Shown here: positions 3,586 to 64,000 of the stretch, piece after piece
Layout of the letters: each line of letters begins with the position of its first letter
Position numbering within the stretch: position 1 is the stretch's first letter
DNA from: Escherichia coli
GTDB lineage: Bacteria; Pseudomonadota; Gammaproteobacteria; Enterobacterales; Enterobacteriaceae
DNA length: 64,000 nt
Assembly (NCBI RefSeq): GCF_022846255.1
Contig: NZ_AP025682.1
Direction: 5' to 3' (one strand)
Notes under the pieces: model-generated
Told to the model about the DNA's origin: nothing
What the model saw: only the letters and a program-made list of their open reading frames with translations
Database searches by the model: none
Position numbers and translations under genes: made by a program

Positions 3586-3619
3586 GAAACGGATGATAAC
3601 CTTAATAAATGCAGCTGTA

Positions 3620-18971: not shown

Positions 18972-19729
18972 GCTGGCGTCTGGTCTATGCATCAACCGTT
19001 GGAACGTCGCACATCAGCGCGGACTTGCCTTGCCAGGATGCCTGCCAGATGCAGGTTGCCTGGTTAAATGACCAGCAGCCATTATTGTCGGTATTTGTCG
19101 CTGATGGCGCAGGCAGTGTCTCGCAGGGTGGCGAAGGTGCGATGCTCGCCGTCAATGAAGCGATGGCTTATATGTCGCAAAAAGTGCAGGGCGGGGAATT
19201 GGGGCTTAATGATGTCCTCGCAACGGACATTGTGCTGACCATTCGTCAGCGACTTTTTGCCGAGGCGGAAGCCAAAGAATTAGCGGTTCGCGATTTTGCC
19301 TGCACGTTTTTGGGATTGATTTCATCAGCTAATGGCACCTTGATTATGCAGATTGGCGATGGCGGCGTGGTGGTAGATTTGGGTCACGGTTTGCAACTGC
19401 CGCTCACGCCGATGGTGGGGGAATATGCCAATATGACGCACTTCATTACCGATGACGATGCTGTTTCCAGACTGGAAACTTACACCAGTACTGAGCGTGC
19501 GCATAAAGTTGCAGCATTTACGGATGGTATTCAGCGACTGGCGTTAAATATGCTGGATAATTCTCCGCATGTGCCTTTCTTTACCCCGTTTTTCAATGGA
19601 CTGGCGTCAGCAACGCAGGAACAACTCGATTTATTACCTGAATTGTTAAAGCAGTTTTTGTCCAGCCCGACGGTAAACGAGCGTACCGATGATGATAAAA
19701 CGTTGGCACTGGCGCTGTGGTTACCATGA
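18968..19729 (+). CDS. yegK: PP2C-family Ser/Thr protein phosphatase YegK (PphC)
   Basis: 253 aa; GTG start overlaps the yegL stop (GTGA); PP2C-like motifs (FVADGAGS..., IGDGG). Confidence 0.88.
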
Positions 19730-21666
19730 AACCCACTTTATATACTGCTACTGGTGAGTGCGTTACGCCTGGCCGTGAACTGGGCAAAGGCGGTGAAGGT
19801 GCGGTTTATGATATCGAGGAGTTTGCCGATAGCGTCGCCAAGATTTATCACACGCCGCCACCCGCCTTAAAACAGGACAAACTTGCCTTTATGGCTGCGA
19901 CAGCTGACGCGCAGTTGTTGAATTATGTCGCCTGGCCGCAGGCAACGCTTCACGGTGGACGAGGCGGAAAAGTTATCGGTTTTATGATGCCAAAAGTTTC
20001 TGGTAAAGAACCGATTCATATGATCTATAGCCCGGCACATCGTCGCCAGAGTTACCCTCATTGTGCGTGGGATTTTCTACTCTATGTTGCGCGCAATATT
20101 GCTTCATCTTTTGCTACTGTTCATGAGCACGGGCACGTCGTGGGTGACGTAAACCAGAACAGCTTTATGGTAGGTCGCGACAGCAAAGTGGTGTTGATTG
20201 ATAGCGACTCCTTTCAGATTAATGCCAATGGTACACTGCATTTATGCGAAGTCGGCGTGTCGCATTTTACGCCGCCAGAGCTGCAAACCATGCCATCATT
20301 TGTCGGCTTTGAACGCACAGAAAATCACGATAATTTTGGCCTTGCGTTGCTGATATTTCACATCTTGTTTGGTGGGCGGCATCCTTATTCCGGTGTACCG
20401 CTTATCTCTGATGCGGGTAATGCGCTGGAGACGGATATTGCCCATTTCCGTTATGCCTACGCGTCAGATAATCAGCGACGTGGTTTAAAACCGCCGCCAC
20501 GATCGATTCCGCTGTCGATGTTACCGGGCGATGTTGAAGCCATGTTTCAGCAGGCATTCACGGAAAGTGGCGTGGCAACCGGGCGTCCGACGGCAAAAGC
20601 GTGGGTAGCGGCACTTGATTTACTACGCCAACAGTTAAAGAAATGTACCGTTTCGGCAATGCATGTTTACCCCGCTCATTTGACTGACTGCCCGTGGTGT
20701 GCGCTGGATAATCAAGGCGTTATCTATTTTATTGATCTCGGCGAAGAGGTCATTACCACCGGCGGTGATTTTGTGCTGGCGAGAGTCTGGGCGATGGTGA
20801 TGGCGTCAGTAGCACCGCCAGCATTGCAATTACCATTACCCGATCATTTCCAACCGACTGGCAGGCCGCTTCCTTTAGGCCTGTTAAGGCGTGAATACAT
20901 CATTCTGATTGAGATCGCACTGTCAGCGTTATCGCTGCTGCTTTGCGGCCTTCAGACAGAACCACGTTATATTATTTTGGTTCCTGTGCTGTCGGCTATC
21001 TGGATTATTGGCAGCCTGACAAGCAAAGCGTACAAAGCAGAAATCCAGCAACGCCGTGAGGCGTTTAATCGTGCGAAAATGGACTATGACCATTTAGTCA
21101 GCCAGATCCAACAGTTGGGCGGGCTGGAAGGTTTTATCGCCAAACGGACGATGCTCGAAAAAATGAAGGACGAAATTCTTGGGTTACCGGAAGAAGAAAA
21201 GCGCGATCTGGCAGCACTTCAGGACACCGCAAGGGAACGGCAGAAGCAGAAGTTTCTGGAGGGATTTTTTATTGATGTTGCCTCTATTCCCGGCGTTGGC
21301 CCTGCGCGTAAAGCGGCGTTACGGTCCTTTGGTATTGAAACAGCAGCGGATGTTACCCGACGGAGCGTTAAGCAAGTGAAAGGTTTTGGTGATCATCTGA
21401 CCCAGGCGGTTATCGACTGGAAAGCGAGCTGTGAACGCCGTTTTTTGTTCAGGCCGAACGAAGCGGTAACGCCTGCAGACAGACAAGCGGTAATGGCAAA
21501 AATGGCCGCCAAACGACATCGGCTGGAATCGGCGCTGACTGTCGGTGCGACAGAGTTGCAGCGATTCCGCCTTCATGCTCCAGCACGGACCATGCCGTTG
21601 ATGGAACCGCTACGTCAGGCGGCAGAAAAACTGGCTCAGGCGCAGGCTGATTTAAGCCGTTGCTGA
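19726..21666 (+). CDS. yegI: eukaryotic-like Ser/Thr protein kinase YegI with C-terminal transmembrane, coiled-coil and helix-hairpin-helix regions
   Basis: ATG at 19726 overlaps the yegK stop (ATGA). Gly-rich loop LGKGGEGAVY, a VAIK-like lysine (VAKIY) and a catalytic-loop-like VGDVNQNS; predicted TM helices (IILIEIALSALSLLLCGL, ILVPVLSAIWIIGSL) and an HhH-like IPGVGPARKAALRSFGI. Confidence 0.88.
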   Translation: MKPTLYTATGECVTPGRELGKGGEGAVYDIEEFADSVAKIYHTPPPALKQDKLAFMAATADAQLLNYVAWPQATLHGGRGGKVIGFMMPKVSGKEPIHMIYSPAHRRQSYPHCAWDFLLYVARNIASSFATVHEHGHVVGDVNQNSFMVGRDSKVVLIDSDSFQINANGTLHLCEVGVSHFTPPELQTMPSFVGFERTENHDNFGLALLIFHILFGGRHPYSGVPLISDAGNALETDIAHFRYAYASDNQRRGLKPPPRSIPLSMLPGDVEAMFQQAFTESGVATGRPTAKAWVAALDLLRQQLKKCTVSAMHVYPAHLTDCPWCALDNQGVIYFIDLGEEVITTGGDFVLARVWAMVMASVAPPALQLPLPDHFQPTGRPLPLGLLRREYIILIEIALSALSLLLCGLQTEPRYIILVPVLSAIWIIGSLTSKAYKAEIQQRREAFNRAKMDYDHLVSQIQQLGGLEGFIAKRTMLEKMKDEILGLPEEEKRDLAALQDTARERQKQKFLEGFFIDVASIPGVGPARKAALRSFGIETAADVTRRSVKQVKGFGDHLTQAVIDWKASCERRFLFRPNEAVTPADRQAVMAKMAAKRHRLESALTVGATELQRFRLHAPARTMPLMEPLRQAAEKLAQAQADLSRC

Positions 21667-33038: not shown

Positions 33039-33077
33039 CAGTGTGTTGGTAGCTAAAAAGCCAGGGGCGGTAGCGTG
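33039..33077 (+). promoter_or_regulatory. JUMPstart element with ops site (GGCGGTAGCGTG at 33066-33077) in the colanic acid operon leader
   Basis: Exact ops consensus GGCGGTAGnnTG preceded by GGTAGC, about 180 bp upstream of wza; the RfaH-dependent anti-termination signal known for cps operons. Confidence 0.75.
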
Positions 33078-47503: not shown

Positions 47504-47603
47504 CCGTTGAATAATCAACCGGATTAATTCTCCGGTAAATAACGAAAAAACAAAATTGGCCGTTTCGGTCAGGGCCAACTATTGCCTGAAAAAGGGTAAC
47601 GAC

Positions 47604-49028: not shown

Positions 49029-50423
49029 ATGACAAATCTAAAAAAGCGCGAGCGAGCGAAAACCAATGCATCGTTAATCTCTATGGTGCAACGCTTTTCA
49101 GATATCACCATCATGTTTGCCGGACTATGGCTGGTTTGCGAAGTGAGCGGACTGTCATTCCTCTACATGCACCTGTTGGTGGCGCTGATTACGCTGGTGG
49201 TGTTCCAGATGCTGGGCGGCATCACCGATTTTTATCGCTCATGGCGCGGTGTTCGGGCATCGACAGAATTTGCTCTGTTGCTACAAAACTGGACGTTAAG
49301 CGTGATTTTCAGCGCCGGACTGGTGGCGTTTAACAATGATTTCGACACGCAACTGAAAATCTGGCTGGCGTGGTATGGACTGACCAGCATCGGACTGGTG
49401 GTTTGCCGTTCGTGTATTCGCATTGGGGCGGGCTGGCTGCGTAATCATGGCTATAACAAACGCATGGTCGCCGTAGCGGGGGATTTAGCCGCCGGACAAA
49501 TGCTGATGGAAAGCTTCCGTAATCAGCCGTGGTTAGGGTTTGAAGTGGTGGGCGTTTACCACGACCCGAAACCGGGCGGCGTTTCTAACGACTGGGCGGG
49601 CAATCTGCAACAACTGGTCGAGGATGCGAAAGCGGGCAAGATTCATAACGTCTATATCGCGATGCAGATGTGCGACGGCGCGCGAGTGAAAAAACTGGTC
49701 CATCAACTGGCGGACACCACCTGTTCGGTGCTGCTGATCCCCGATGTCTTTACCTTCAACATTCTCCATTCCCGTCTCGAAGAGATGAACGGCGTACCGG
49801 TGGTGCCGCTGTATGACACGCCGCTTTCCGGGGTTAACCGCCTGCTAAAACGTGCGGAAGATATTGTGCTGGCGACGCTTATTCTGCTGCTGATCTCCCC
49901 GGTGCTGTGCTGTATTGCGCTGGCGGTAAAACTCAGTTCACCAGGACCGGTTATTTTCCGCCAGACTCGCTATGGCATGGATGGCAAGCCGATCAAAGTG
50001 TGGAAGTTCCGTTCGATGAAAGTGATGGAGAACGACAAAGTGGTGACCCAGGCGACGCAGAACGATCCGCGCGTCACCAAAGTGGGGAACTTTCTGCGCC
50101 GCACCTCGCTGGATGAATTGCCGCAGTTTATCAATGTGCTGACCGGGGGGATGTCGATTGTCGGTCCACGTCCGCACGCGGTGGCGCATAACGAACAGTA
50201 TCGCCAGCTCATTGAAGGCTACATGCTGCGCCATAAAGTGAAACCGGGCATTACCGGTTGGGCGCAGATTAACGGCTGGCGCGGCGAAACCGACACGCTG
50301 GAGAAAATGGAAAAACGCGTCGAGTTCGACCTTGAGTACATCCGCGAATGGAGCGTCTGGTTCGATATCAAAATCGTTTTCCTGACGGTATTCAAGGGCT
50401 TCGTTAACAAAGCGGCATATTGA
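49029..50423 (+). CDS. wcaJ: undecaprenyl-phosphate glucose phosphotransferase WcaJ (initiating transferase)
   Basis: 464 aa; polyisoprenyl-phosphate hexose-1-phosphate transferase C-terminal domain (PGITGWAQINGWRGETD). Confidence 0.93.
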   Translation: MTNLKKRERAKTNASLISMVQRFSDITIMFAGLWLVCEVSGLSFLYMHLLVALITLVVFQMLGGITDFYRSWRGVRASTEFALLLQNWTLSVIFSAGLVAFNNDFDTQLKIWLAWYGLTSIGLVVCRSCIRIGAGWLRNHGYNKRMVAVAGDLAAGQMLMESFRNQPWLGFEVVGVYHDPKPGGVSNDWAGNLQQLVEDAKAGKIHNVYIAMQMCDGARVKKLVHQLADTTCSVLLIPDVFTFNILHSRLEEMNGVPVVPLYDTPLSGVNRLLKRAEDIVLATLILLLISPVLCCIALAVKLSSPGPVIFRQTRYGMDGKPIKVWKFRSMKVMENDKVVTQATQNDPRVTKVGNFLRRTSLDELPQFINVLTGGMSIVGPRPHAVAHNEQYRQLIEGYMLRHKVKPGITGWAQINGWRGETDTLEKMEKRVEFDLEYIREWSVWFDIKIVFLTVFKGFVNKAAY

Positions 50424-50424
50424 T

Positions 50425-51903
50425 ATGAGCTTACGTGAAAAAACCATCAGCGGCGCGAAGTGGTCGGCGATTGCCACGGTGATCATCATCGGCCTCGGGC
50501 TGGTGCAAATGACCGTGCTGGCGCGGATTATCGACAACCACCAGTTCGGTTTGCTGACTGTGTCGCTGGTGATTATCGCGTTGGCAGATACACTTTCTGA
50601 CTTCGGTATCGCTAACTCGATTATTCAGCGAAAAGAAATCAGCCACCTTGAACTCACCACGCTGTACTGGCTGAACGTTGGGCTGGGGCTTGTGGTGTGC
50701 GTGGCGGTGTTTTTGTTGAGTGATCTCATCGGTGACGTGCTGAATAACCCGGACCTGGCACCGTTGATTAAAACATTGTCGCTGGCGTTTGTGGTGATCC
50801 CCCACGGGCAGCAGTTCCGCGCGTTGATGCAAAAAGAGCTGGAGTTCAACAAAATCGGCATGATCGAAACCAGCGCGGTGCTGGCGGGCTTCACTTTTAC
50901 GGTGGTTAGCGCCCATTTCTGGCCACTGGCGATGACCGCGATCCTCGGTTATCTGGTCAATAGTGCGGTAAGAACGCTGCTGTTTGGCTACTTTGGTCGC
51001 AAAATTTATCGCCCCGGTCTGCATTTCTCGCTGGCGTCGGTGGCACCGAACTTACGCTTTGGTGCCTGGCTGACGGCGGACAGCATCATCAACTATCTCA
51101 ATACCAACCTTTCAACGCTGGTGCTGGCGCGTATTCTCGGCGCGGGCGTGGCAGGGGGATACAACCTGGCGTACAACGTGGCCGTTGTGCCGCCGATGAA
51201 GCTGAACCCAATCATCACCCGCGTGTTGTTTCCGGCATTTGCCAAAATTCAGGACGACACCGAAAAGCTGCGCGTTAACTTCTACAAGCTGCTGTCGGTA
51301 GTGGGGATTATCAACTTTCCGGCGCTGCTGGGGCTGATGGTGGTGTCGAATAACTTTGTACCGCTGGTCTTTGGTGAGAAGTGGAACAGCATTATTCCGG
51401 TGCTGCAATTGCTGTGTGTGGTGGGGCTGCTGCGCTCAGTGGGGAACCCGATTGGTTCGCTGCTGATGGCGAAAGCGCGGGTCGATATCAGCTTTAAATT
51501 CAACGTATTCAAAACCTTTCTGTTTATTCCGGCGATTGTTATTGGTGGGCAGATGGCGGGCGCAATCGGCGTCACGCTTGGCTTCCTGCTGGTGCAGATT
51601 ATCAACACCATTCTGAGCTATTTCGTGATGATTAAACCGGTTCTTGGTTCCAGTTATCGCCAGTACATCCTGAGTTTGTGGCTGCCGTTTTACCTCTCGC
51701 TGCCGACGCTGGTGGTTAGTTCTGCGCTGGGCATTGTGCTGAAAGGGCAACTGGCGCTGGGGATGCTGCTGGCGGTGCAAATAACCGCGGGCGTGCTGGC
51801 GTTTGTGGTGATGATTGTGCTGTCACGCCATCCGCTGGTAGTGGAAGTGAAGCGTCAGTTTTGTCGCAGCGAAAAAATGAAAATGCTTTTACGGGCGGGG
51901 TGA
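50425..51903 (+). CDS. wzxC: colanic acid repeat-unit flippase WzxC
   Basis: 492 aa polytopic membrane protein of the Wzx/MOP family. Confidence 0.92.
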   Translation: MSLREKTISGAKWSAIATVIIIGLGLVQMTVLARIIDNHQFGLLTVSLVIIALADTLSDFGIANSIIQRKEISHLELTTLYWLNVGLGLVVCVAVFLLSDLIGDVLNNPDLAPLIKTLSLAFVVIPHGQQFRALMQKELEFNKIGMIETSAVLAGFTFTVVSAHFWPLAMTAILGYLVNSAVRTLLFGYFGRKIYRPGLHFSLASVAPNLRFGAWLTADSIINYLNTNLSTLVLARILGAGVAGGYNLAYNVAVVPPMKLNPIITRVLFPAFAKIQDDTEKLRVNFYKLLSVVGIINFPALLGLMVVSNNFVPLVFGEKWNSIIPVLQLLCVVGLLRSVGNPIGSLLMAKARVDISFKFNVFKTFLFIPAIVIGGQMAGAIGVTLGFLLVQIINTILSYFVMIKPVLGSSYRQYILSLWLPFYLSLPTLVVSSALGIVLKGQLALGMLLAVQITAGVLAFVVMIVLSRHPLVVEVKRQFCRSEKMKMLLRAG

Positions 51904-51975
51904 ATGGCTGTTTTCGGTTCCGGCAACGAACACAACAAACATAGCCTCACCTGGCATCAAATTTATGAGGAAAAA

Positions 51976-53256
51976 ATGAAATTACTTATTCTGGGCAACC
52001 ACACTTGCGGCAATCGCGGCGACAGCGCCATCTTGCGCGGCTTACTTGATGCCATCAACATCCTCAATCCACACGCCGAAGTGGACGTGATGAGTCGCTA
52101 TCCGGTCAGTTCTTCCTGGCTGCTCAACCGTCCGGTAATGGGCGATCCGCTGTTCCTGCAAATGAAACAACACAACAGCGCGGCGGGCGTGGTTGGGCGC
52201 GTTAAAAAAGTTCTCCGTCGCCGCTACCAGCACCAGGTATTGCTCTCACGCGTCACCGACACTGGCAAGCTGCGTAATATCGCCATCGCCCAGGGATTCA
52301 CCGACTTCGTGCGCCTGCTGTCAGGTTACGACGCCATTATTCAGGTCGGCGGATCGTTTTTTGTCGATCTCTACGGCGTTCCGCAGTTTGAACATGCGCT
52401 TTGCACGTTTATGGCGAAAAAGCCGCTGTTTATGATTGGTCACAGCGTCGGCCCGTTCCAGGATGAGCAATTTAACCAACTGGCGAACTACGTATTCGGT
52501 CACTGCGACGCGCTGATCCTGCGCGAATCGGTCAGCCTTGAACTGATGAAACGCAGCAATATCACCACCGCAAAAGTCGAACATGGCGTCGATACCGCGT
52601 GGCTGGTCGATCACCACACCGAAGACTTCACCGCCAGCTATGCCGTTCAACACTGGCTGGACGTTGCCGCACAACAGAAAACGGTGGCCATTACCCTGCG
52701 CGAACTGGCACCGTTTGACAAACGTCTCGGCACCACCCAACAAGCGTATGAAAAAGCCTTTGCCGGGGTGGTCAATCGCATTCTCGATGAAGGGTATCAG
52801 GTGATTGCGCTCTCCACCTGTACGGGCATCGACAGCTATAACAAAGACGACCGCATGGTGGCGCTCAATCTGCGCCAGCACATCAGCGATCCTGCCCGTT
52901 ACCACGTAGTGATGGATGAACTCAACGATCTGGAAATGGGCAAAATTCTCGGTGCCTGTGAACTCACCGTTGGTACGCGCCTGCACTCTGCCATTATCTC
53001 GATGAACTTTGCCACTCCGGCGATTGCCATCAACTACGAACATAAATCCGCCGGGATCATGCAACAACTGGGGCTACCAGAGATGGCAATTGATATCCGT
53101 CATTTATTAGACGGCAGCCTGCAAGCGATGGTTGCGGATACCTTAGGTCAGCTTCCGGCGCTGAACGCACGACTTAACGAAGCTGTCAGTCGCGAACGTC
53201 AGACGGGAATGCAGATGGTGAAATCTGTGCTTGAACGCATCGGGGAGGCAAAATGA
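51976..53256 (+). CDS. wcaK: colanic acid pyruvyl transferase WcaK
   Basis: 426 aa from ATG at 51976 (MKLLILGNHTCGNRGD...). The supplied ORF start at 51904 is an extension. Confidence 0.9.
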   Translation: MKLLILGNHTCGNRGDSAILRGLLDAINILNPHAEVDVMSRYPVSSSWLLNRPVMGDPLFLQMKQHNSAAGVVGRVKKVLRRRYQHQVLLSRVTDTGKLRNIAIAQGFTDFVRLLSGYDAIIQVGGSFFVDLYGVPQFEHALCTFMAKKPLFMIGHSVGPFQDEQFNQLANYVFGHCDALILRESVSLELMKRSNITTAKVEHGVDTAWLVDHHTEDFTASYAVQHWLDVAAQQKTVAITLRELAPFDKRLGTTQQAYEKAFAGVVNRILDEGYQVIALSTCTGIDSYNKDDRMVALNLRQHISDPARYHVVMDELNDLEMGKILGACELTVGTRLHSAIISMNFATPAIAINYEHKSAGIMQQLGLPEMAIDIRHLLDGSLQAMVADTLGQLPALNARLNEAVSRERQTGMQMVKSVLERIGEAK

Positions 53257-54473
53257 AGGTCGGCTTCTTTTTACTGAAATTTCCGTTGTCGTCGGAAACC
53301 TTCGTCCTCAATCAAATTACCGCGTTTATTGATATGGGCTTTGAAGTGGAGATTGTCGCGCTGCAAAAAGGCGACACACAAAACACCCACGCGGCATGGA
53401 CGAAATACAACCTTGCCGCCAGAACCCGCTGGTTACAGGACGAACCTGCGGGCAAAGTGGCGAAACTGCGCCACCGCGCCAGCCAGACCTTACGCGGCAT
53501 TCATCGTAAAAATACCTGGCAGGCGCTCAACCTCAAACGCTATGGTGCTGAGTCGCGGAACCTGATTTTGTCTGCCATTTGCGGTAAGGTCGCAACACCG
53601 TTTCATGCCGATGTCTTTATCGCTCATTTTGGCCCTGCGGGGGTAACCGCAGCAAAACTACGCGAACTGGGTGTCATTCGCGGCAAAATTGCCACTATCT
53701 TCCACGGTATTGATATCTCCAGTCGGGAGGTGCTCAACCACTACACTCCCGAATATCAGCAACTGTTCCGCCGTGGCGACCTGATGCTACCGATCAGCGA
53801 TCTGTGGGCCGGAAGGCTGCAAAAAATGGGATGCCCGAGGGAAAAAATCGCCGTATCGCGCATGGGCGTGGACATGACGCGCTTTAGCCCGCGTCCGGTG
53901 AAAGCGCCCGCAACACCGCTGGAAATCATTTCCGTCGCACGCTTAACCGAGAAAAAAGGCCTGCATGTGGCGATTGAAGCCTGCCGTCAGTTGAAAGAGC
54001 AGGGCGTGGCATTTCGCTATCGCATCCTCGGCATTGGTCCGTGGGAACGACGCCTGCGCACCCTCATCGAACAATATCAACTGGAAGATGTGGTGGAGAT
54101 GCCGGGCTTTAAACCGAGCCACGAAGTGAAAGCGATGCTAGACGACGCGGATGTCTTCCTGTTGCCATCGGTTACAGGTGCGGATGGCGATATGGAAGGT
54201 ATTCCGGTGGCGCTGATGGAAGCGATGGCGGTCGGTATTCCGGTGGTTTCTACTCTGCATAGCGGAATTCCTGAACTGGTGGAGGCCGATAAATCCGGCT
54301 GGTTGGTGCCTGAGAACGATGCTCGCGCACTGGCGCAACGACTGGCGGCGTTTAGCCAACTGGACACCGACGAACTGGCTCCGGTCGTCAAACGTGCTCG
54401 CGAAAAAGTCGAACACGATTTTAACCAGCAGGTGATCAATCGAGAACTCGCCAGCTTGCTGCAGGCTTTATAG
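53253..54473 (+). CDS. wcaL: colanic acid glycosyltransferase WcaL (GT4 family)
   Basis: 406 aa, [22 protein letters not shown]... Confidence 0.9.
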
Positions 54474-54483
54474 AGGAGAACGC

Positions 54484-55878
54484 ATGCCATTTAAAAAACT
54501 CTCCCGACGCACGTTCCTGACGGCAAGCTCGGTGCTTGCCTTCCTCCATACGCCTTTCGCCCGTGCAATTCCCGCTCAACAAAGCGTTAACATTAACGAC
54601 TACAACCCTCACGACTGGATCGCCTCATTTAAACAAGCCTTCAGCGAAGGGCAAACGGTCGTCGTGCCTGCCGGATTGGTTTGTGACAATATCAACACTG
54701 GCATCTTCATTCCTTCTGGCAAAACGTTACACATCCTCGGAAGCCTGCGCGGCAACGGTAGAGGGCGATTTGTCTTACAGGACGGCAGCCAGGTGACAGG
54801 GGAGGAGGGCGGCAGTATGCATAACATCACCCTGGATGTGCGTGGTTCTGACTGCACCATCAAAGGGCTGGTGATGAGCGGCTTTGGCCCGGTGACGCAG
54901 ATCTATATCGGCGGCAAAAACAAACGGGTCATGCACAACCTGACCATCGATAACCTGACCGTTAGCCACGCTAATTACGCCATCTTACGCCAGGGATTTC
55001 ATAACCAGATAATCGGTGCCAACATCACCAACTGTAAGTTCAGCGACTTACAGGGCGACGCTATTGAATGGAACGTGGCGATTAACGACAGTGATATTTT
55101 GATATCCGACCATCTCATTGAGCGCATTAACTGTACCAACGGCAAAATCAACTGGGGCATCGGCATAGGTCTTGCGGGAAGCACTTATGATAACAACTAC
55201 CCGGAAGACCAGGCAGTGAAAAACTTTGTCGTGGCGAATATCACGGGATCGGATTGTCGGCAACTGATCCATGTTGAAAATGGTAAACATTTTGTTATTC
55301 GTAATATCAAAGCCCGTAATATCACGCCGGATTTCAGTAAGAAAGCAGGTATTGATAACGCCACAGTTGCTATTTATGGTTGTGACAACTTTGTGATTGA
55401 TAATATTGAAATGATTAATAGTGCCGGGATGTTAATCGGCTATGGGGTAATTAAAGGCAAATATCTCTCGATACCGCAGAATTTCCGAGTGAATGATATT
55501 CAACTGGATAATACTCATCTTGCTTATAAATTGCGCGGCATTCAAATCTCCGCCGGGAATGCTGTCTCCTTTGTGGCGCTGACTAACATTGAGATGAAGC
55601 GTGCGTCGCTTGAGCTACACAACAAACCGCAACATCTTTTTATGCGCAATATCAATGTGATGCAGGAATCCTCAGTTGGACCCGCATTGAGCATGAACTT
55701 TGACATGCGCAAAGACGTTCGAGGCGTTTTTATGGCGAAAAAAGAAACACTGCTGTCTCTTGCAAATGTTCATGCGGTGAATGAAAAAGGACAAAGCTCC
55801 GTCGATATCGACAGGATTAATCACCATATTGTTAATGTGGCAAAGATTAACTTTAGATTGCCGGAACGGAGAGAGTAG
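54484..55878 (+). CDS. wcaM: colanic acid biosynthesis protein WcaM (secreted beta-helix-like protein)
   Basis: 464 aa with an N-terminal signal peptide; last gene of the cluster. Confidence 0.88.
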
Positions 55879-56052
55879 ATTTGCGACCATTCCTGGAAAA
55901 ATGGAGCCATACTTAGGAACAATGCTACTGCAATCCACAACGAAGCGGCGTAACATCACAAGTAATTCAGTAATCAATTCAGGGTAATTGATGCTGGCGA
56001 AAAAAATCGAACAAGCTATAATTCAGCAACCATTTTACAGGTGGATGAAATA

Positions 56053-56946
56053 ATGACGAATTTAAAAGCAGTTATTCCTGTAGCGGGTCTTGGGATGCAT
56101 ATGTTGCCTGCCACTAAGGCGATTCCCAAAGAGATGCTACCGATCGTCGACAAGCCAATGATTCAGTACATCGTTGACGAGATTGTGGCTGCAGGGATCA
56201 AAGAAATCCTCCTGGTAACTCACGCTTCCAAGAACGCGGTCGAAAACCACTTCGACACCTCTTATGAATTAGAATCTCTCCTTGAACAGCGCGTGAAGCG
56301 TCAACTGCTGGCGGAAGTACAGTCCATTTGCCCGCCGGGCGTGACAATTATGAACGTGCGTCAGGGCGAACCTTTAGGTTTGGGCCACTCCATTTTATGT
56401 GCACGACCTGCCATTGGTGACAATCCATTTGTCGTGGTGCTGCCAGACGTTGTGATCGACGACGCCAGCGCCGACCCGCTGCGCTACAACCTTGCTGCCA
56501 TGATTGCGCGCTTCAACGAAACGGGCCGCAGCCAGGTGCTGGCAAAACGTATGCCGGGTGACCTCTCTGAATACTCTGTCATCCAGACCAAAGAGCCGCT
56601 GGACCGCGAAGGTAAAGTCAGCCGCATTGTTGAATTCATCGAAAAACCGGATCAGCCGCAGACGCTGGACTCAGACATCATGGCCGTTGGTCGCTATGTG
56701 CTTTCTGCCGATATTTGGCCGGAACTTGAACGCACTCAGCCTGGTGCATGGGGGCGTATTCAGCTGACTGATGCCATTGCCGAACTGGCGAAAAAACAGT
56801 CCGTTGATGCCATGCTGATGACCGGCGACAGCTACGACTGCGGTAAAAAAATGGGTTATATGCAAGCGTTCGTGAAGTATGGACTACGCAACCTCAAAGA
56901 AGGGGCGAAGTTCCGTAAAGGGATTGAGAAGCTGTTAAGCGAATAA
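56053..56946 (+). CDS. galF: UTP-glucose-1-phosphate uridylyltransferase regulatory subunit GalF
   Basis: 297 aa from ATG at 56053 ([32 protein letters not shown]...). Confidence 0.93.
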
Positions 56947-57204
56947 TGAAAATCTGACCGGATGTAACGGTTGATAAGAAAATTATAACGGCAGTGAAGA
57001 TTAGCGGCGAAAGTAATTTGTTGCGAATTTTCCTGCCGTTGTTTTATATAAACAATCAGAATAACAACGACTTAGCAATAGGATTTTAGTCAAAGTTTTC
57101 CAGGATTTTCCTTGTTTCCAGAGCGGATTGGTAAGACAATTAGCGCTTGAATTTTTCGAGTTAAGCGCGAGTGGGTAACGCTCGTCACATCGTAGGAATG
57201 CATG

Positions 57205-57243
57205 CAGTGCTCTGGTAGCTGTAAAGCCAGGGGCGGTAGCGTG
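57205..57243 (+). promoter_or_regulatory. JUMPstart element with ops site (GGCGGTAGCGTG at 57232-57243) in the O-antigen operon leader
   Basis: Exact ops consensus preceded by GGTAGC, about 75 bp upstream of rmlB; the same 30-nt core (agccaggggcggtagcgtg) as the cps leader copy. Confidence 0.75.
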
Positions 57244-57318
57244 CATTAATACCTCTATTAATCAAACTGAGAGCCGCTTATTTCACAGCATGCTCTGAAG
57301 TAATATGGAATAAATTAA

Positions 57319-58404
57319 GTGAAGATACTTGTTACTGGGGGCGCAGGATTTATTGGTTCTGCTGTAGTTCGTCACATTATAAATAATACGCAGGATAGTG
57401 TTGTTAATGTCGATAAATTAACGTACGCCGGAAACCTGGAATCACTTGCTGATGTTTCTGACTCTGAACGCTATGTTTTTGAACATGCGGATATTTGCGA
57501 TGCTGCTGCAATGGCGCGGATTTTTGCTCAGCATCAGCCGGATGCAGTGATGCACCTGGCTGCTGAAAGCCATGTGGATCGTTCAATTACAGGCCCTGCG
57601 GCATTTATTGAAACCAATATTGTTGGTACTTATGTCCTTTTGGAAGCGGCTCGCAATTACTGGTCTGCTCTTGATGGCGACAAGAAAAATAGCTTCCGTT
57701 TTCATCATATTTCTACTGACGAAGTCTATGGTGATTTGCCTCATCCTGACGAAGTAAATAATAAAGAACAATTACCCCTCTTTACTGAGACGACAGCTTA
57801 CGCGCCTAGTAGTCCTTATTCCGCATCAAAAGCATCCAGCGATCATTTAGTCCGCGCGTGGAAACGTACCTATGGTTTACCGACTATTGTGACTAACTGT
57901 TCGAATAACTACGGTCCTTATCACTTTCCGGAAAAATTGATTCCACTAGTAATTCTTAATGCTCTGGAAGGTAAGGCATTACCTATTTATGGCAAAGGGG
58001 ATCAAATTCGTGACTGGCTGTATGTTGAAGATCATGCGCGTGCGTTATATACCGTAGTTACTGAAGGTCAAGCGGGTGAAACCTATAACATTGGCGGACA
58101 CAACGAAAAGAAAAACATCGATGTTGTGCTGACTATTTGTGATTTGTTGGACGAGATAGTCCCGAAAGAGAAATCTTATCGTGAGCAAATTACTTATGTT
58201 GCTGATCGCCCAGGGCATGATCGCCGTTATGCGATTGATGCTGAGAAGATTGGTCGCGAATTGGGATGGAAACCACAGGAAACGTTTGAGAGTGGGATTC
58301 GTAAAACGGTGGAATGGTATTTGGCTAATGCAAAATGGGTTGATAATGTGAAAAGTGGTGCCTATCAATCGTGGATTGAACAGAACTATGAGGGCCGCCA
58401 GTAA
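57319..58404 (+). CDS. rmlB: dTDP-glucose 4,6-dehydratase
   Basis: 361 aa, GTG start, (M)[20 protein letters not shown]...; SDR family. Confidence 0.93.
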
Positions 58405-59303
58405 TGAATATCCTCCTTTTTGGCAAAACAGGGCAGGTAGGTTGGGAACTACAGCGTGCTCTGGCACCTCTGGGTAATTTGATTGCTCTTGATGTTCACT
58501 CCACTGATTACTGTGGTGATTTTAGTAACCCTGAAGGTGTGGCTGAAACAGTCAAAAGAATTCGACCTGATGTTATTGTTAATGCTGCGGCTCACACCGC
58601 AGTAGATAAGGCTGAGTCAGAACCCGAATTTGCACAATTACTCAATGCGACTAGCGTTGAATCAATTGCAAAAGCGGCAAATGAAGTTGGGGCTTGGGTA
58701 ATTCATTACTCAACTGACTACGTATTCCCTGGAAATGGCGACACGCCATGGCTGGAGATGGATGCAACCGCACCGCTAAATGTTTACGGTGAAACCAAGT
58801 TAGCTGGAGAAAAAGCATTACAAGAGCATTGTGCGAAGCACCTAATTTTCCGTACCAGCTGGGTCTATGCAGGTAAAGGAAATAATTTCGCCAAAACGAT
58901 GTTGCGTCTGGCAAAAGAGCGTGAAGAACTAGCCGTTATTAATGATCAGTTTGGTGCGCCAACAGGTGCTGAACTGCTGGCTGATTGTACGGCACATGCC
59001 ATTCGTGTCGCACTGAATAAACCGGATGTCGCAGGCTTGTACCATTTGGTAGCCAGTGGTACCACAACCTGGTACGATTATGCTGCGCTGGTTTTTGAAG
59101 AGGCGCGCAATGCAGGCATTCCTCTTGCACTCAACAAGCTCAACGCAGTACCAACAACTGCCTATCCTACACCAGCTCGTCGTCCACATAACTCTCGCCT
59201 TAATACAGAAAAATTTCAGCAGAATTTTGCGCTTGTATTGCCTGACTGGCAGGTTGGTGTGAAACGCATGCTCAACGAATTATTTACGACTACAGCAATT
59301 TAA
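58404..59303 (+). CDS. rmlD: dTDP-4-dehydrorhamnose reductase
   Basis: 299 aa, [20 protein letters not shown]... Confidence 0.93.
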   Translation: MNILLFGKTGQVGWELQRALAPLGNLIALDVHSTDYCGDFSNPEGVAETVKRIRPDVIVNAAAHTAVDKAESEPEFAQLLNATSVESIAKAANEVGAWVIHYSTDYVFPGNGDTPWLEMDATAPLNVYGETKLAGEKALQEHCAKHLIFRTSWVYAGKGNNFAKTMLRLAKEREELAVINDQFGAPTGAELLADCTAHAIRVALNKPDVAGLYHLVASGTTTWYDYAALVFEEARNAGIPLALNKLNAVPTTAYPTPARRPHNSRLNTEKFQQNFALVLPDWQVGVKRMLNELFTTTAI

Positions 59304-59360
59304 TAGTTTTTGCATCTTGTTCGTGATGGTGGAGCAAGATGAATTAAAAGGAATGATGAA

Positions 59361-60239
59361 ATGAAAACGCGTAAAGGTATTATTTTAGCGGGTGGTTCTG
59401 GTACTCGTCTTTATCCTGTGACTATGGTCGTCAGTAAACAGCTATTACCTATATATGATAAACCGATGATCTATTATCCGCTTTCTACACTGATGTTAGC
59501 GGGTATTCGCGATATTCTGATTATTAGTACGCCACAGGATACTCCTCGTTTTCAACAACTGCTGGGTGACGGTAGCCAGTGGGGCCTGAATCTTCAGTAC
59601 AAAGTGCAACCGAGTCCGGATGGTCTTGCGCAGGCATTTATTATCGGTGAAGAGTTTATTGGTGGTGATGATTGTGCTTTGGTACTTGGTGATAATATCT
59701 TCTACGGTCACGACCTGCCTAAGTTAATGGATGCCGCTGTTAACAAAGAAAGTGGTGCAACGGTATTTGCCTATCACGTTAATGATCCTGAACGCTATGG
59801 TGTCGTTGAGTTTGATAAAAACGGTACGGCGATCAGCCTGGAAGAAAAACCGCTACAACCAAAAAGTAATTATGCGGTAACCGGGCTTTATTTTTATGAT
59901 AACGACGTTGTCGAAATGGCGAAAAATCTTAAGCCTTCTGCCCGCGGTGAACTGGAAATTACCGATATTAACCGTATCTATATGGAACAAGGGCGTTTAT
60001 CTGTTGCCATGATGGGGCGTGGTTATGCGTGGTTAGACACGGGGACACATCAGAGCCTGATTGAGGCAAGCAACTTTATTGCAACAATTGAAGAGCGTCA
60101 GGGGCTGAAAGTTTCCTGCCCGGAAGAAATTGCTTACCGTAAAGGGTTTGTTGATGCTGAGCAGGTGAAAGTATTAGCTGAACCTCTGAAAAAAAATGCT
60201 TATGGTCAGTATCTGCTGAAAATGATTAAAGGTTATTAA
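59361..60239 (+). CDS. rmlA: glucose-1-phosphate thymidylyltransferase
   Basis: 292 aa, [21 protein letters not shown]... Confidence 0.95.
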
Positions 60240-60243
60240 TAAA

Positions 60244-60792
60244 ATGAACGTAATTAAAACAGAAATTCCTGATGTACTGATTTTTGAACCGAAAGTTTTT
60301 GGTGATGAGCGTGGTTTCTTTTTTGAGAGCTTTAACCAGAAGGTTTTTGAGGAAGCTGTAGGCCGCAAAGTTGAATTTGTTCAGGATAACCATTCGAAGT
60401 CTAGTAAAGGTGTTTTACGCGGGCTGCATTATCAGTTGGAACCTTATGCACAAGGAAAATTGGTGCGTTGCGTTGTCGGTGAAGTTTTTGACGTAGCTGT
60501 TGATATTCGTAAATCGTCATCGACTTTTGGCAAATGGGTTGGGGTGAATTTATCTGCTGAGAATAAGCGGCAATTGTGGATTCCTGAGGGATTTGCACAT
60601 GGTTTTTTAGTGCTGAGTGAGACGGCGGAGTTTTTGTATAAGACGACAAATTATTATCATCCTCAGAGTGATAGAGGAATAAAATGGGATGATCCAAGTA
60701 TCAATATTTCATGGCCAGTCGATTCACAAGTGCTGCTATCAGCTAAAGATAATAAGCATCCTCCATTAACAAAGATTGAAATGTATAGTTAA
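60244..60792 (+). CDS. rmlC: dTDP-4-dehydrorhamnose 3,5-epimerase
   Basis: 182 aa cupin-fold RmlC (…GLHYQLEPYAQGKLVRCVVGEVFDVAVDIRK…). Confidence 0.93.
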   Translation: MNVIKTEIPDVLIFEPKVFGDERGFFFESFNQKVFEEAVGRKVEFVQDNHSKSSKGVLRGLHYQLEPYAQGKLVRCVVGEVFDVAVDIRKSSSTFGKWVGVNLSAENKRQLWIPEGFAHGFLVLSETAEFLYKTTNYYHPQSDRGIKWDDPSINISWPVDSQVLLSAKDNKHPPLTKIEMYS

Positions 60793-60823
60793 GATCACGA
60801 TAAATCTTGGAAGGGTTGCAAAA

Positions 60824-62062
60824 TTGAATAAAATAGTGAGCAAAAGTGAAATAAGGAACGTAATCCACAATGCTGGCTATATGATGATTACTCAGATAGC
60901 TTTATATGTTGCACCATTATTTATACTGAGTTATCTGTTAAAAACACTGGGGGTTGCACAGTTTGGTAATTATGCCTTAATACTATCAATCGTTGCATAT
61001 TTACAGATTATAACGGATTATGGTTTTTCTTTTAGTGCAAGTCGTGCGATCTCACAGAATAGAGAGGACAAAGAATATATATCAAAAATTTATCTGTCAA
61101 CTATGACTATCAAGTTGGCGATATGCGCTTTCTTATTCTTATTGCTCATGCTATTTTTAAATCTTTTGCCTGTGCAAGCTGAATTAAAACAAGGAATATT
61201 ATATGGATATCTTCTTGTAATAGGAAATACTTTCCAACCACAATGGTTTTTCCAAGGTATCGAAAAATTAAAAATCATAGCCCTTTCTAATGTTATATCA
61301 AGATGCGCCGCGTGTTTACTTGTATTTATCTATGTGAGGAATAGCGAGGATTTACAAAAAGCACTTTTAGTACAGTCACTTCCATTAGTAATTTCTGCGA
61401 TTGGATTAAATATATTTATATTGAAATATATCAATATTATTTTTCCGGAAAAAAAATTATTTAAGGTAATTTTAAAAGAAGGTAAGGATTTTTTTCTTGC
61501 ATCACTTTATTCTGTTATTCTCAATAATAGTGGCATTTTTCTATTAGGGATTTTTACTAATCCTGTTATTGTTGGTGTATATGCCGCCGCTGAAAAGATA
61601 GTCAAGGCCGTATTGTCGCTATTTACACCACTGACGCAAGCTATATATCCTTATAATTGTCGTAAGTTTTCACTATCCGTATTTGACGGCATTGAGGCAG
61701 CAAAAAAAACTGGTATACCAATTATAATTTTAGCATTTATAGCTGCTGTTATCGTTGCAATTACCTTACCTGTTGCAATCGACTATCTTAATTTTCCAAA
61801 AGAAACAATTTTTGTAGGTCAAATATTAAGTGCATGGATCTTTTTTGGTGTTCTTAATAATGTATTCGGCATTCAGATATTGAGTGCATCAGGAAGAAGT
61901 AAAATATATAGTAGGATGGTATTCGTATCAGCGCTTATAACATTACTTTTGATTACTCTATTATTGCAGTTTTGTAACGCCACTGGAGTGGCATGTGCAA
62001 TATTATTGGGTGAAATGTTCTTATCAATATTGTTACTTAAGCGATATAAAAAAATAATTTAA
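60824..62062 (+). CDS. wzx: O-antigen flippase Wzx (start codon uncertain: TTG at 60824 or ATG at 60881)
   Basis: Very AT-rich, polytopic membrane protein of about 395-410 aa directly after rmlC. The supplied ORF begins at 60776, overlapping rmlC. A ggaagg RBS precedes TTG 60824. Confidence 0.75.
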   Translation: MNKIVSKSEIRNVIHNAGYMMITQIALYVAPLFILSYLLKTLGVAQFGNYALILSIVAYLQIITDYGFSFSASRAISQNREDKEYISKIYLSTMTIKLAICAFLFLLLMLFLNLLPVQAELKQGILYGYLLVIGNTFQPQWFFQGIEKLKIIALSNVISRCAACLLVFIYVRNSEDLQKALLVQSLPLVISAIGLNIFILKYINIIFPEKKLFKVILKEGKDFFLASLYSVILNNSGIFLLGIFTNPVIVGVYAAAEKIVKAVLSLFTPLTQAIYPYNCRKFSLSVFDGIEAAKKTGIPIIILAFIAAVIVAITLPVAIDYLNFPKETIFVGQILSAWIFFGVLNNVFGIQILSASGRSKIYSRMVFVSALITLLLITLLLQFCNATGVACAILLGEMFLSILLLKRYKKII

Positions 62063-62071
62063 GGAATAGTT

Positions 62072-63199
62072 ATGAAGAAGTTATTATTAGTGTTCGGTAC
62101 TAGGCCTGAAGCAATAAAGATGGCCTCTATCATTGAATTATTAAAAAAAGATTGTAGATTCGAATATAAAATATGTGTGACAGGCCAACATAAAGAGATG
62201 CTTGATCAAGTTATGCAAGTATTTGATGTTAAACCTGATTATAATTTACGGATTATGCAGCCTGGGCAAACATTAGTATCTGTAGCAACAAATATACTCT
62301 CACGGTTAAGTGAAGTTTTAATTATAGAAAAGCCAGATATTATACTTGTGCATGGGGATACAACGACTACCCTTGCTGCTACTTTAGCTGGGTATTACCA
62401 CCAAATAAAAGTTTGTCATGTGGAAGCAGGATTAAGAACAGGGGATATTTACTCTCCTTGGCCTGAAGAGGGCAATCGTAAAGTTACAGGGGCATTAGCA
62501 TGTATTCATTTCGCCCCAACAGAGAGATCAAAAGATAATCTCCTGAGGGAGGGGGTCAAAGTAAATAATATATTTGTAACGGGTAATACCGTCATCGACT
62601 CTTTATTTATTGCAAAAGATATCATAGATAATGACCCTAATATAAAGAACGCTTTACATAATAAATTTAATTTTCTTGATAAAAGCCGACGAGTAGTACT
62701 TATAACAGGTCATCGAAGAGAAAATTTCGGGAAAGGTTTTGAAGATATATGCTTTGCAATAAAGGAATTAGCTTTCATTTATCCTAATGTAGATTTTATT
62801 TATCCGGTGCATCTTAATCCCAATGTAATGGAACCAGTACATCGTATATTAGATAATATATGTAATATTTACCTTATTGAGCCCTTGGATTATTTGCCTT
62901 TTGTTTATTTAATGAATGAGTCATATTTAATATTGACTGATTCAGGGGGGATACAAGAAGAAGCGCCTTCGTTAGGTAAACCGGTTTTGGTTATGCGTGA
63001 TACTACTGAACGCCCTGAGGCGGTTGAGGCTGGTACTGTTGTATTAGTGGGGACTTCTAAGATAAAAATAGTAAATAAAGTAACGGAGCTATTAAACAAT
63101 GCTGATATCTACAATGCTATGTCTCTGTTACATAATCCATATGGCGATGGAACAGCTGCTCAAAAAATTCTTAATGTGCTCGCCCAAGAGCTAATTTAA
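62072..63199 (+). CDS. UDP-N-acetylglucosamine 2-epimerase (non-hydrolysing, WecB/MnaA-like)
   Basis: 375 aa, MKKLLLVFGTRPEAIKMASII... and the HVEAGLRT and DSGGIQEEAPSLGKPVLVMRDTTERPE motifs typical of the WecB family. Confidence 0.85.
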   Translation: MKKLLLVFGTRPEAIKMASIIELLKKDCRFEYKICVTGQHKEMLDQVMQVFDVKPDYNLRIMQPGQTLVSVATNILSRLSEVLIIEKPDIILVHGDTTTTLAATLAGYYHQIKVCHVEAGLRTGDIYSPWPEEGNRKVTGALACIHFAPTERSKDNLLREGVKVNNIFVTGNTVIDSLFIAKDIIDNDPNIKNALHNKFNFLDKSRRVVLITGHRRENFGKGFEDICFAIKELAFIYPNVDFIYPVHLNPNVMEPVHRILDNICNIYLIEPLDYLPFVYLMNESYLILTDSGGIQEEAPSLGKPVLVMRDTTERPEAVEAGTVVLVGTSKIKIVNKVTELLNNADIYNAMSLLHNPYGDGTAAQKILNVLAQELI

Positions 63200-63213
63200 T
63201 TTAAGCTAAAAAT

Positions 63214-64000
63214 ATGTTATTAATTATTGCTGATTATCCAAACGAAATGAATATGCGCGAGGGAGCTATGCAACGAATAGATGCGATAGACTCTCTCATT
63301 CGAGATCGCAAGCGAGTGTATTTGAATATTTCATTCAAAAAGCATCTAGTTCGCTCAAATAGTTCCTTTAATAATGTTATAGTTGAAAATCTAAATGCAA
63401 TTATTCACAGAAACATCATAAAACAGTACATGCAAAAATCAACAACTATATATGTTCATTCTGTTTATAATTTATTAAAGGTTATAACGCTCATTGATCT
63501 AAAAAAAACAATTCTTGATATACATGGTGTTGTACCGGAAGAACTTTTGGCAGATAATAAAAAATTACTTAGTAAAGTATATAACATGGTGGAAAAAAAA
63601 GGTGTCCTTGGATGCAAAAAATTAATACACGTCAGTACAGAAATGCAAAAACACTATGAAGCAAAATATGGAGTAAACTTGGCTGAAAGGTCAATAGTGC
63701 TCCCGATTTTTGAATATAAAAATATAACCCAATCGCAAAACAAATGGACAGAAAATAAAATACGAAGTATCTATCTTGGAGGATTACAAACATGGCAAAA
63801 TATTGATAAAATGATTCAAATTTGTGATGACACAGTGATAAACAATGAAGCAGGTAAGTATGAATTCAACTTTTTCATCCCACAGAGTAACTTGGAAGGG
63901 TTTATAGATAAATATTCGTTAAAATTACATAATATCAATGCTAATGCATCTACGCTATCACGTGATGAAGTAATTCCCTTTCTAAAAGAATGTCATATTG
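63214..64000 (+). CDS. putative O-antigen glycosyltransferase-like protein, 3'-truncated by the window end
   Basis: Open frame from ATG 63214 to the window end (262 codons, no stop; translated by hand: MLLIIADYPNEMNMREGAMQRIDAIDS...). AT-rich, in the O-antigen cluster; family not assignable without a search. Confidence 0.5.
   Translation, partial: MLLIIADYPNEMNMREGAMQRIDAIDSLIRDRKRVYLNISFKKHLVRSNSSFNNVIVENLNAIIHRNIIKQYMQKSTTIYVHSVYNLLKVITLIDLKKTILDIHGVVPEELLADNKKLLSKVYNMVEKKGVLGCKKLIHVSTEMQKHYEAKYGVNLAERSIVLPIFEYKNITQSQNKWTENKIRSIYLGGLQTWQNIDKMIQICDDTVINNEAGKYEFNFFIPQSNLEGFIDKYSLKLHNINANASTLSRDEVIPFLKECHI

Follow-up and report, generated by a model that had tools for sequence, protein, structure and literature searches.

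The interval from 57319 to 64000 of the 64,000-nucleotide stretch of Escherichia coli DNA that we analyzed (hereafter the window) is very probably the promoter-proximal half of the E. coli O1 (O1A genotype) O-antigen cluster, a Wzx/Wzy-dependent locus lying between galF and gnd. O1 ranks among the most frequent serogroups of extraintestinal and avian pathogenic E. coli, and candidate O-antigen conjugate vaccines have included it among their components (PMC9907479; PMC12529432). Recognizing the O1A locus types the strain, but the cluster is an ordinary one that has already been described, and typing of the strain adds no new biology.

The serotype can be read from the wzx gene and from the sequence that follows it. 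The wzx gene (60836..62062, + strand) encodes an O1-type O-unit flippase that matched the Pfam Polysacc_synt model (PF01943, E=3.5e-41); it starts at a GTG codon at position 60836, as in RefSeq, and the open frame reaches back to a TTG codon at 60776. The DNA from 60776 to 64000 was 100% identical to that of 91 of the 5,426 complete E. coli genomes (1.7%), in which wzx is annotated as 'O1 family O-antigen flippase' (WP_157658977.1). The part of the cluster from wzx onward is thus serotype-specific and not housekeeping, in agreement with a previous reading of this DNA made from the sequence alone. No NCBIfam model matched Wzx, Wzy, or the glycosyltransferase encoded downstream of mnaA (the GT-B protein, see below), and PGAP evidently assigns its 'O1 family' names by a rule of a different kind from these models. 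In all 91 genomes the sequence continues with wzy(O1), a GT2 gene, a DUF1972 glycosyltransferase gene, and gnd, with the stretch from wzx to the DUF1972 gene being contiguous in every one of them (91/91). The APEC O1 genome (NC_008563) aligned at 99.8% over the full cluster. O1A-specific wzy primers and probe, and wzx oligonucleotides for the O1non-A type, are available from Delannoy 2017 (PMC5293828). The wzy gene lies past base 64000, and the O1A call hence combines the 5' half of the cluster with its constant continuation in the 91 genomes: the wzyO1A oligonucleotides matched exactly at positions 16342, 16370, and 16407 of locus L001, a locus that does not differ from the window over 60776-64000, and the O1non-A wzx primers and probe had no match with 5 or fewer mismatches in either the window or L001. 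The 91-genome identity and the missing O1non-A oligonucleotide sites mark the wzx allele as O1A. Therefore, the serotype, which the sequence-only reading had left undetermined, is O1, genotype O1A.

Similarity to O1 strains extends upstream of wzx. Genomes sharing the 5' part of the window include 'O1:H42 strain CLSC36', and an ungapped alignment of positions 55792-64000 with strain FDAARGOS_497 contained 0 mismatches. The flanking colanic acid genes carry 139 substitutions relative to the closest O1 genomes, which points either to another chromosomal background or to recombination in the flank. When a 14-kb stretch that includes upstream sequence was compared, no genome in the collection matched better than 99.0%. 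Small indels separate the window from L001 in the upstream region, and locus L002 aligns gap-free.

The galF gene (56053..56946, + strand), which forms the conserved border on the upstream side of the locus, is 100% identical to that of FDAARGOS_497 and matches the galF gene annotated in L001 and L002. This border is thus present directly upstream, and gnd follows the DUF1972 gene in both inspected loci (L001 and L002) and flanks the other side of the locus, which here lies beyond the window end, in all matching genomes, in keeping with an O-antigen locus. The positions of the ORFs and the family models also upheld the gene order initially proposed, rmlBDAC, wzx, UDP-GlcNAc 2-epimerase gene, and glycosyltransferase ORF. 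The dTDP-L-rhamnose pathway is complete, with four intact ORFs that each score above the curated NCBIfam equivalog cut-off, all on the + strand: rmlB (rfbB, dTDP-glucose 4,6-dehydratase, 57319..58404; NF007490, 795 bits for a cut-off of 649, and TIGR01181, 512 for 365), rmlD (rfbD, dTDP-4-dehydrorhamnose reductase, 58404..59303; NF007440, 654 bits for 308), rmlA (rfbA, glucose-1-phosphate thymidylyltransferase, 59361..60239; NF012024, 677 bits for 588), and rmlC (rfbC, dTDP-4-dehydrorhamnose 3,5-epimerase, 60244..60792; TIGR01221, 292 bits for 156). This rml block is present in 2,649 genomes, whereas the part from wzx onward occurs in only the 91 of 5,426 mentioned above. Following wzx, mnaA (a wecB paralogue, 62072..63199, + strand) encodes a non-hydrolysing UDP-GlcNAc 2-epimerase that produces UDP-ManNAc. 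Its product passed the TIGR00236 wecB model (503.7 bits, cut-off 210.15) but not the TIGR03568 model of the hydrolysing NeuC enzymes (108.8 bits, cut-off 235.9), so that the epimerase assignment holds and the gene does not belong to another family.

JUMPstart with its ops sequence is an RfaH-dependent antitermination signal found in the leader of O-antigen operons. In the window, this element, GGCGGTAG (57205..57243, + strand), precedes the start of rmlB by 76 bases and matched the full Rfam model RF01707 with 60 bits (gathering score 35, E=3.4e-12). Both marks of an RfaH-controlled Wzx/Wzy operon, a gene for a MOP-superfamily flippase and a JUMPstart/ops leader, are therefore present. A hairpin after galF (56981-57048) was marked by a weak match to the plant microRNA family MIR8001, which is a chance match (25 bits, Rfam gathering score 90).

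The sharp drop in GC content after galF that had been noticed in the sequence is real and can be refined to two steps, from 0.52 in galF to 0.43 in the rml genes and to 0.33 from wzx onward (0.521 for galF, 0.401 for the galF-rmlB spacer, 0.433 for rmlBDAC, and 0.326 from wzx to the window end, where GC3 is 0.25-0.26). Compared with one-kb windows over positions 1-55000 (mean 0.525, sd 0.037, minimum 0.395), the stretch from wzx to the end lies approximately 5 sd under the mean, and no other part of the window is as low. This low-GC serotype-specific part is a horizontally exchanged cassette. Upstream of galF, a dip to 0.42 is already seen in the 3' half of wcaM.

The published O1A unit is ->3)-[b-D-ManNAc-(1->2)]-a-L-Rha-(1->3)-a-L-Rha-(1->3)-b-L-Rha-(1->4)-b-D-GlcNAc-(1-> (PMC11148006, Table 1), and thus contains 3 L-Rha residues, D-ManNAc, and D-GlcNAc (PMC11148006; PMC5293828). 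The L-Rha and ManNAc that had been predicted from the gene content are sugars of this unit. Its structure calls for precisely those two nucleotide-sugar pathways for which the locus carries genes. From the established pathway we infer the following course of synthesis for O1A, including which glycosyltransferase forms which linkage. With RfaH bound at ops, transcription would read through the operon; RmlABCD would supply dTDP-L-rhamnose and MnaA would supply UDP-ManNAc. WecA, encoded elsewhere, would start the unit by transferring GlcNAc-P onto undecaprenyl phosphate. The DUF1972 protein encoded beyond the window matched the model of the Cps2T beta-1,4-rhamnosyltransferase at 5e-68, and this Cps2T-like enzyme would add the beta-L-Rha-(1->4) residue. 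The GT2 enzyme would attach L-Rha in alpha-(1->3) linkage, probably twice, and the GT-B protein starting at 63214 would add the beta-D-ManNAc-(1->2) side branch. The resulting pentasaccharide would then be flipped by Wzx, polymerised by Wzy, and ligated to the lipid A core by WaaL.

The last ORF (63214..64000, + strand) was expected to run off the window, and indeed the frame is open from the ATG at 63214 to position 64000. Its 262 amino acids are identical to residues 1-262 of the 354-residue protein WP_000924430.1, the window ending 92 codons short of the end of the gene. The glycosyltransferase-like character given to this ORF stands, but its description as unassignable to a family does not, since structure prediction places the protein among divergent GT-B (GT4-like) glycosyltransferases. 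The predicted structure has a two-domain GT-B fold and not a GT-A fold, it is closest to GT4 structures, and the nearest folds are those of retaining enzymes. On this model, the RefSeq name of WP_000924430.1, 'glycosyl transferase family 2', is wrong, the protein being a GT-B enzyme; exposing this mislabel is of modest value. PF00535 (Glycos_transf_2) did not match the GT-B protein or any of 35 relatives. In Pfam searches with the GT-B protein alone, Glyco_transf_4 gave a marginal match (E=0.015) and Glycos_transf_1 none, and among the 35 relatives 15 and 7, respectively, passed 0.001. The first Glu of the EX7E motif is replaced by Val275, eight positions before the invariant E283, in 94% of the members, and a YxGGxQxWQN sequence replaces the R/K pair that usually follows the first strand of the C-domain. 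The GT-B protein thus lacks the combination of a significant profile match and an EX7E motif that identifies GT4 enzymes by sequence, and its identity to the retaining CAZy GT4 enzymes PimA, WaaG, BshA, and GlgM is 9-13%. When the 35-member alignment was used as a profile against PDB sequences, no relative came up (the best hits, at E 0.17, were unrelated glycan-binding proteins), and the GT-B assignment therefore needed structure prediction.

Judging from its sequence neighbourhood, the last ORF probably attaches the ManNAc side branch. The mnaA and GT-B genes are kept together in 10 of 10 sampled loci, including Aeromonas, Comamonas, and Iodobacter clusters that otherwise share nothing with O1. 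According to the structure in PMC11148006, the three O1A linkages left outside the Cps2T-like enzyme are all inverting, which argues against retention by the GT-B protein. CAZy GT4 enzymes are retaining, whereas the product expected of the O1 GT-B protein is beta-linked and implies inversion. Formation of beta-ManNAc from UDP-alpha-ManNAc requires inversion, and the retaining character of the nearest folds speaks against the proposed ManNAc role. A different division of labour would make the GT-B protein a rhamnosyltransferase and leave ManNAc to the GT2 enzyme, the adjacency to mnaA then reflecting shared inheritance of a cassette and not donor specificity. We consider this unlikely. In the Aeromonas, Comamonas, and Iodobacter loci the pair persists without rmlD, rmlA, or rmlC homologues (tblastn, 13-15 kb each), so that a rhamnose donor is unlikely to be the common feature of the family, and the GT-B gene often overlaps or abuts the epimerase gene (L007, L009, L011, and L013). 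Moreover, a rhamnosyltransferase role leaves the same stereochemical tension, all three remaining linkages being inverting. Members of the GT-B family were found in Enterobacteriaceae, Aeromonas, Neisseria, Comamonas, Iodobacter, Acinetobacter, Bacteroidota, and a Chloroflexi-labelled MAG, and our literature searches turned up neither a biochemical study of this glycosyltransferase nor a characterised family member. We tentatively propose, at somewhat less than even chances, that ManNAc transfer by the GT-B protein reflects a widespread, uncharacterised family that is coupled to MnaA, uses UDP-ManNAc, and inverts despite its GT4-like fold. If true, this would be a type of ManNAc transferase separate from GT26 (WecG/TagA), to which RefSeq at present gives the wrong name, 'family 2'. 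The conserved mnaA and GT-B pair provides a testable prediction of donor specificity for the family.

Because the window stops inside the third specific gene, an O1A-type 5' module (rml-wzx-mnaA-GT) could in principle be joined past the window to another wzy/glycosyltransferase module, giving an antigen other than O1A. Mosaics related to O1 are documented, as strain A47 combines an O1-variant 5' module with an O10-like wzy module (PMC5293828), and a Salmonella locus (L005) has wzx-mnaA-GT in common with O1 and unrelated genes downstream. Such a mosaic is nonetheless very improbable here, since every complete genome with this exact 5' half has the O1A 3' half contiguous with it, and the A47 mosaic derives from an O1non-A allele, the wzx of which has approximately 54% nucleotide identity to that of the O1A reference G1632 (PMC5293828) and the oligonucleotides of which are missing here. 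That the genes belong to a housekeeping or other non-O-antigen polysaccharide cluster, such as those for colanic acid or ECA, is vanishingly improbable: the colanic acid operon is next to the locus, and ECA synthesis in E. coli uses a housekeeping wecB, but the colanic acid genes stop at wcaM, upstream of galF, the locus has its own JUMPstart in its leader, and this reading is ruled out because so few complete genomes contain the stretch from wzx onward, which in them invariably lies between galF and gnd and is part of a contiguous O1A cluster.

Several known clusters resemble this locus. The E. coli O1A clusters of G1632 and APEC O1 have the same order, rmlBDAC-wzx-mnaA-GT, with no difference in the visible part; G1632 is the reference strain U5-41 (GenBank GU299791), attributed to Li et al. 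2010 in the citing text of PMC5293828. The O1non-A strains (O1B/O1C-type; CB11070, CB13533, CB14293, and A47) share the 5' architecture found here, with rmlBDAC, wzx, mnaA, and one glycosyltransferase gene (PMC5293828), and their O units carry the ManNAc-(b1->2)-Rha side branch as in O1A (PMC5293828; PMC11148006), but one Rha is replaced by Gal. Citrobacter freundii (CP048382.1, L004; also L003) has an identical order between galF and gnd, rmlBDAC-wzx-mnaA-GT-B-wzy(EpsG)-GT2-DUF1972. The proteins of its specific genes are only 52-74% identical to those of O1, so that the relationship is old and does not stem from recent transfer. In an Acinetobacter locus (L008), rmlBDAC-wzx-mnaA is followed by a GT-B homologue and wzy, with Wzx and the GT-B protein showing 32-36% identity to those of O1, in a capsule/K locus context and not between galF and gnd. 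The PSgc10 cluster of Acinetobacter baumannii (Hu et al. 2013, PMC3726653) contains rml genes, mnaA, and three glycosyltransferase genes for four linkages, and its unit includes three consecutive Rha residues. PSgc10 thus follows the same logic as O1A, in which three glycosyltransferases serve a unit with three Rha and ManNAc.

In the six-frame ORF list, galF is followed by a series of ORFs on the same (+) strand: rmlB (57319-58404), rmlD (58404-59303), rmlA (59361-60239), rmlC (60244-60792), wzx (60836-62062; the frame is open from 60776, and the GTG at 60836 is the RefSeq-equivalent start), the epimerase gene mnaA (62072-63199), and a final ORF (63214-64000), which starts at the ATG at 63214 and, as the sequence-only reading had stated, leaves the window with its frame still open. 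All 4 dTDP-L-rhamnose enzymes exceed the cut-offs of curated NCBIfam models. The epimerase scores as the non-hydrolysing WecB type (504 bits, cut-off 210) and stays below the cut-off of the hydrolysing NeuC model (109 bits, cut-off 236), and thus does not belong to another family, an outcome that the earlier reading had named as refuting. Wzx, for which the NCBIfam search returned no model, matches Pfam Polysacc_synt (3.5e-41). The order rmlBDAC, wzx, UDP-GlcNAc 2-epimerase, and glycosyltransferase-like ORF is therefore supported, and the proposed O-antigen locus is real and was correctly interpreted.

The sharp drop in base composition claimed after galF was also found, but it occurs in two steps rather than one. 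GC content goes from 0.521 in galF to 0.401 in the galF-rmlB spacer and 0.433 in rmlBDAC (GC3 0.32-0.37), and then to 0.326 from wzx to the window end (GC3 about 0.25); moreover, it is already down to 0.42 in the 3' half of wcaM, before galF. One-kb windows over the background (1-55000; mean 0.525, sd 0.037) never fall below 0.395, and the last 3.2 kb are therefore by a wide margin the most AT-rich DNA of the window. JUMPstart with its ops octamer is characteristic of the leader of RfaH-dependent polysaccharide operons, and Rfam detected a full-length copy with ops at 57205-57243 (+), 76 bases upstream of rmlB (60 bits, gathering score 35). A second JUMPstart (RF01707, 53.8 bits) lies at 33039-33077 (+), in the low-GC spacer before wza, where the colanic acid operon starts. 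Directly after galF, a long imperfect hairpin (56981-57048, +) with a terminator-like stem (57004-57024) is probably the galF terminator; its sole database echo, a sub-threshold match to a plant microRNA family, was put down to chance. Elsewhere in the window there are 2 SIB antitoxin RNAs of ibs/sib type I toxin-antitoxin loci (17695-17837 and 18023-18165, -), the CyaR sRNA (3502-3587, -), and an algC RNA motif (47550-47599, +) close to cpsG in the colanic acid gene cluster. No tRNA genes were found in the whole window.

The sequence-only reading had left the serotype undetermined, which a genome search and published oligonucleotides resolve as O1 (O1A genotype). When 60776-64000 was compared by megablast with 5,426 complete E. 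coli genomes, it was found in 91, in every case at 99% identity or more and in many at 100%, with the annotations 'O1 family O-antigen flippase', wecB, and a glycosyltransferase. The whole 6.6-kb specific region is unbroken in these 91 genomes, among them APEC O1 (99.8%), and 'O1:H42 strain CLSC36' was among the matches of a 14-kb search. The rml block has no serotype specificity: matches to it occur in 2,649 genomes, for the most part at 90-95% identity, so that only the sequence from wzx onward discriminates serotype. Annotated full O1 loci from 2 other genomes (L001 and L002) read rfbBDAC, wzx, wecB, GT (354 aa), wzy, GT2, DUF1972 protein, and gnd, their wzy being annotated 'O1 family O-antigen polymerase'. 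Serogroup O1 comprises more than one cluster, for which discriminating assays have been published (Delannoy et al. 2017, PMC5293828). The wzyO1A primers and probe, whose design was based on strain G1632/U5-41, the O1A reference (PMC5293828), match L001 exactly at 16342, 16370, and 16407 (+), and the wzxO1non-A oligonucleotides of that study have no match at up to 5 mismatches in the window or L001. The window thus holds the 5' half of an O1A-type cluster. The wzyO1A 'reverse primer' (Table 1, PMC5293828) shares its strand with the forward primer and the probe and was apparently printed in sense orientation. The genome search also returned one plasmid-classed record with the O1-specific stretch and one genome with it in 2 places, which may reflect either a replicon assigned to the wrong class or a true duplication. 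In O1A strain NR329 (NZ_AP040219.1), an IS5 element lies within the rfbB-rfbC region, apparently in rfbB, and this strain may be rough.

Compared with L002, among the closest O1 genomes, the window shows no mismatches at 55792-64000 or at 50000-51499, and all 139 mismatches fall in 51500-55791, from wcaK to wcaM. These mismatches form a recombination patch, part of the familiar mosaic that recombination leaves near O-antigen loci; one of its junctions is inside wcaM, where GC also falls to 0.42. In the closest O1 genome, FDAARGOS_497, an IS110 transposase and a RelE/ParE remnant lie between yegH and asmA (19167-21128 of its extracted locus, L014). A collinear Citrobacter cluster shares 52-74% protein identity with O1A in the specific genes but 84-96% in rml and gnd, which makes the O1A-type cassette old and common to enterobacterial genera. 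In C. freundii CP048382.1, the DUF1972 glycosyltransferase is called in 2 pieces (50 + 295 aa; 10106-11171 of locus L004), a probable frameshift or pseudogene, unlike the intact gene (354 aa) of the other Citrobacter cluster, L003.

The O1A cluster is long described and clinically common, and the locus was already known; what novelty remains lies in the GT-B family of the final ORF, which is linked to mnaA, unstudied, and probably misannotated. The window encodes residues 1-262 of the 354 of this protein, identical to WP_000924430.1, which RefSeq names 'glycosyl transferase family 2' or 'glycosyltransferase family protein'. It has zero NCBIfam matches and a single, marginal Pfam match (Glyco_transf_4, E=0.015), and no relative emerged when PDB sequences were searched with a profile. 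Of its 508 relatives in a large protein collection, 35 diverse members were aligned; Pfam assigned Glyco_transf_4 to 15, Glyco_trans_4_4 to 12, Glycos_transf_1 to 7, and Glycos_transf_2 to none. The confident AlphaFold2 model built from this alignment (pLDDT 94.1, pTM 0.88) has 2 Rossmann domains in a GT-B fold, and its top Foldseek matches are GlgM, glycogen synthase, OtsA, BshA, WaaG, and MshA (E down to 7e-12). This fold, together with GT4/GT1 and never GT2 domains in the relatives, gives no support to 'glycosyl transferase family 2' for WP_000924430.1 (14439-15503 of L001), and this RefSeq name is therefore wrong. The protein is a divergent, non-canonical GT4-like enzyme: Val occupies the position 8 residues ahead of the invariant Glu283 in 94% of family members, the C-terminal domain starts with YxGGxQxWQN in place of the usual basic pair, and the family has invariant motifs of its own (DxHGVVPEE and NRVACPTKxxEY).

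To place this protein functionally, the genomic neighbourhoods of 10 homologues (32-61% identity) were examined: Citrobacter (61%), Salmonella (49%), Aeromonas (42%), Iodobacter (38%), Acinetobacter, Neisseria, and a Chloroflexi-labelled MAG (36% each), Pedobacter and a JGI metagenome contig (35% each), and Comamonas (32%). All 10 have a PF02350 Epimerase_2 gene directly upstream on the same strand, abutting or overlapping in several. In tblastn searches with the O1 proteins, only the epimerase and the GT-B protein were clearly homologous in the Aeromonas, Comamonas, and Iodobacter loci, with no rmlD, rmlA, rmlC, wzx, or wzy homologue in the 13-15 kb covered. For a pair that outlasts a full exchange of the genes around it, the best explanation is a transferase that would use the product of the epimerase. 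From this conserved pairing we infer a UDP-ManNAc:rhamnosyl ManNAc transferase, putatively the one for the O1 side branch. O1A, O1B, and O1C share the ManNAc branch (PMC11148006), and their clusters all keep the epimerase and GT-B module (PMC5293828).

The published O1A unit, ->3)-[b-D-ManNAc-(1->2)]-a-L-Rha-(1->3)-a-L-Rha-(1->3)-b-L-Rha-(1->4)-b-D-GlcNAc-(1-> (PMC11148006, Table 1; composition also in PMC5293828), contains both the L-rhamnose and the probable N-acetylmannosamine predicted from gene content. The DUF1972 protein, which resembles the Cps2T beta-1,4-rhamnosyltransferase model (5e-68, below the NCBIfam equivalog cut-off), would form b-L-Rha-(1->4)-GlcNAc. Addition of the a-(1->3) rhamnoses would fall to the GT2 enzyme, and that of the b-D-ManNAc branch, from UDP-ManNAc, to the GT-B protein. 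All 3 bonds left to enzymes other than the Cps2T-like one invert the donor anomeric configuration, in tension with the retaining mechanism of the enzymes closest in fold to the GT-B protein. These fold neighbours leave the stereochemistry unsettled, because identity is 9-13% and the first Glu of EX7E is missing. Past the WecA-initiated GlcNAc, the unit has 4 glycosidic bonds for 3 glycosyltransferase genes. Acinetobacter baumannii PSgc10 is like O1A in combining 3 rhamnoses and ManNAc with fewer glycosyltransferases than bonds; for this equal mismatch, Hu et al. proposed that one enzyme adds 2 of the rhamnoses (PMC3726653).
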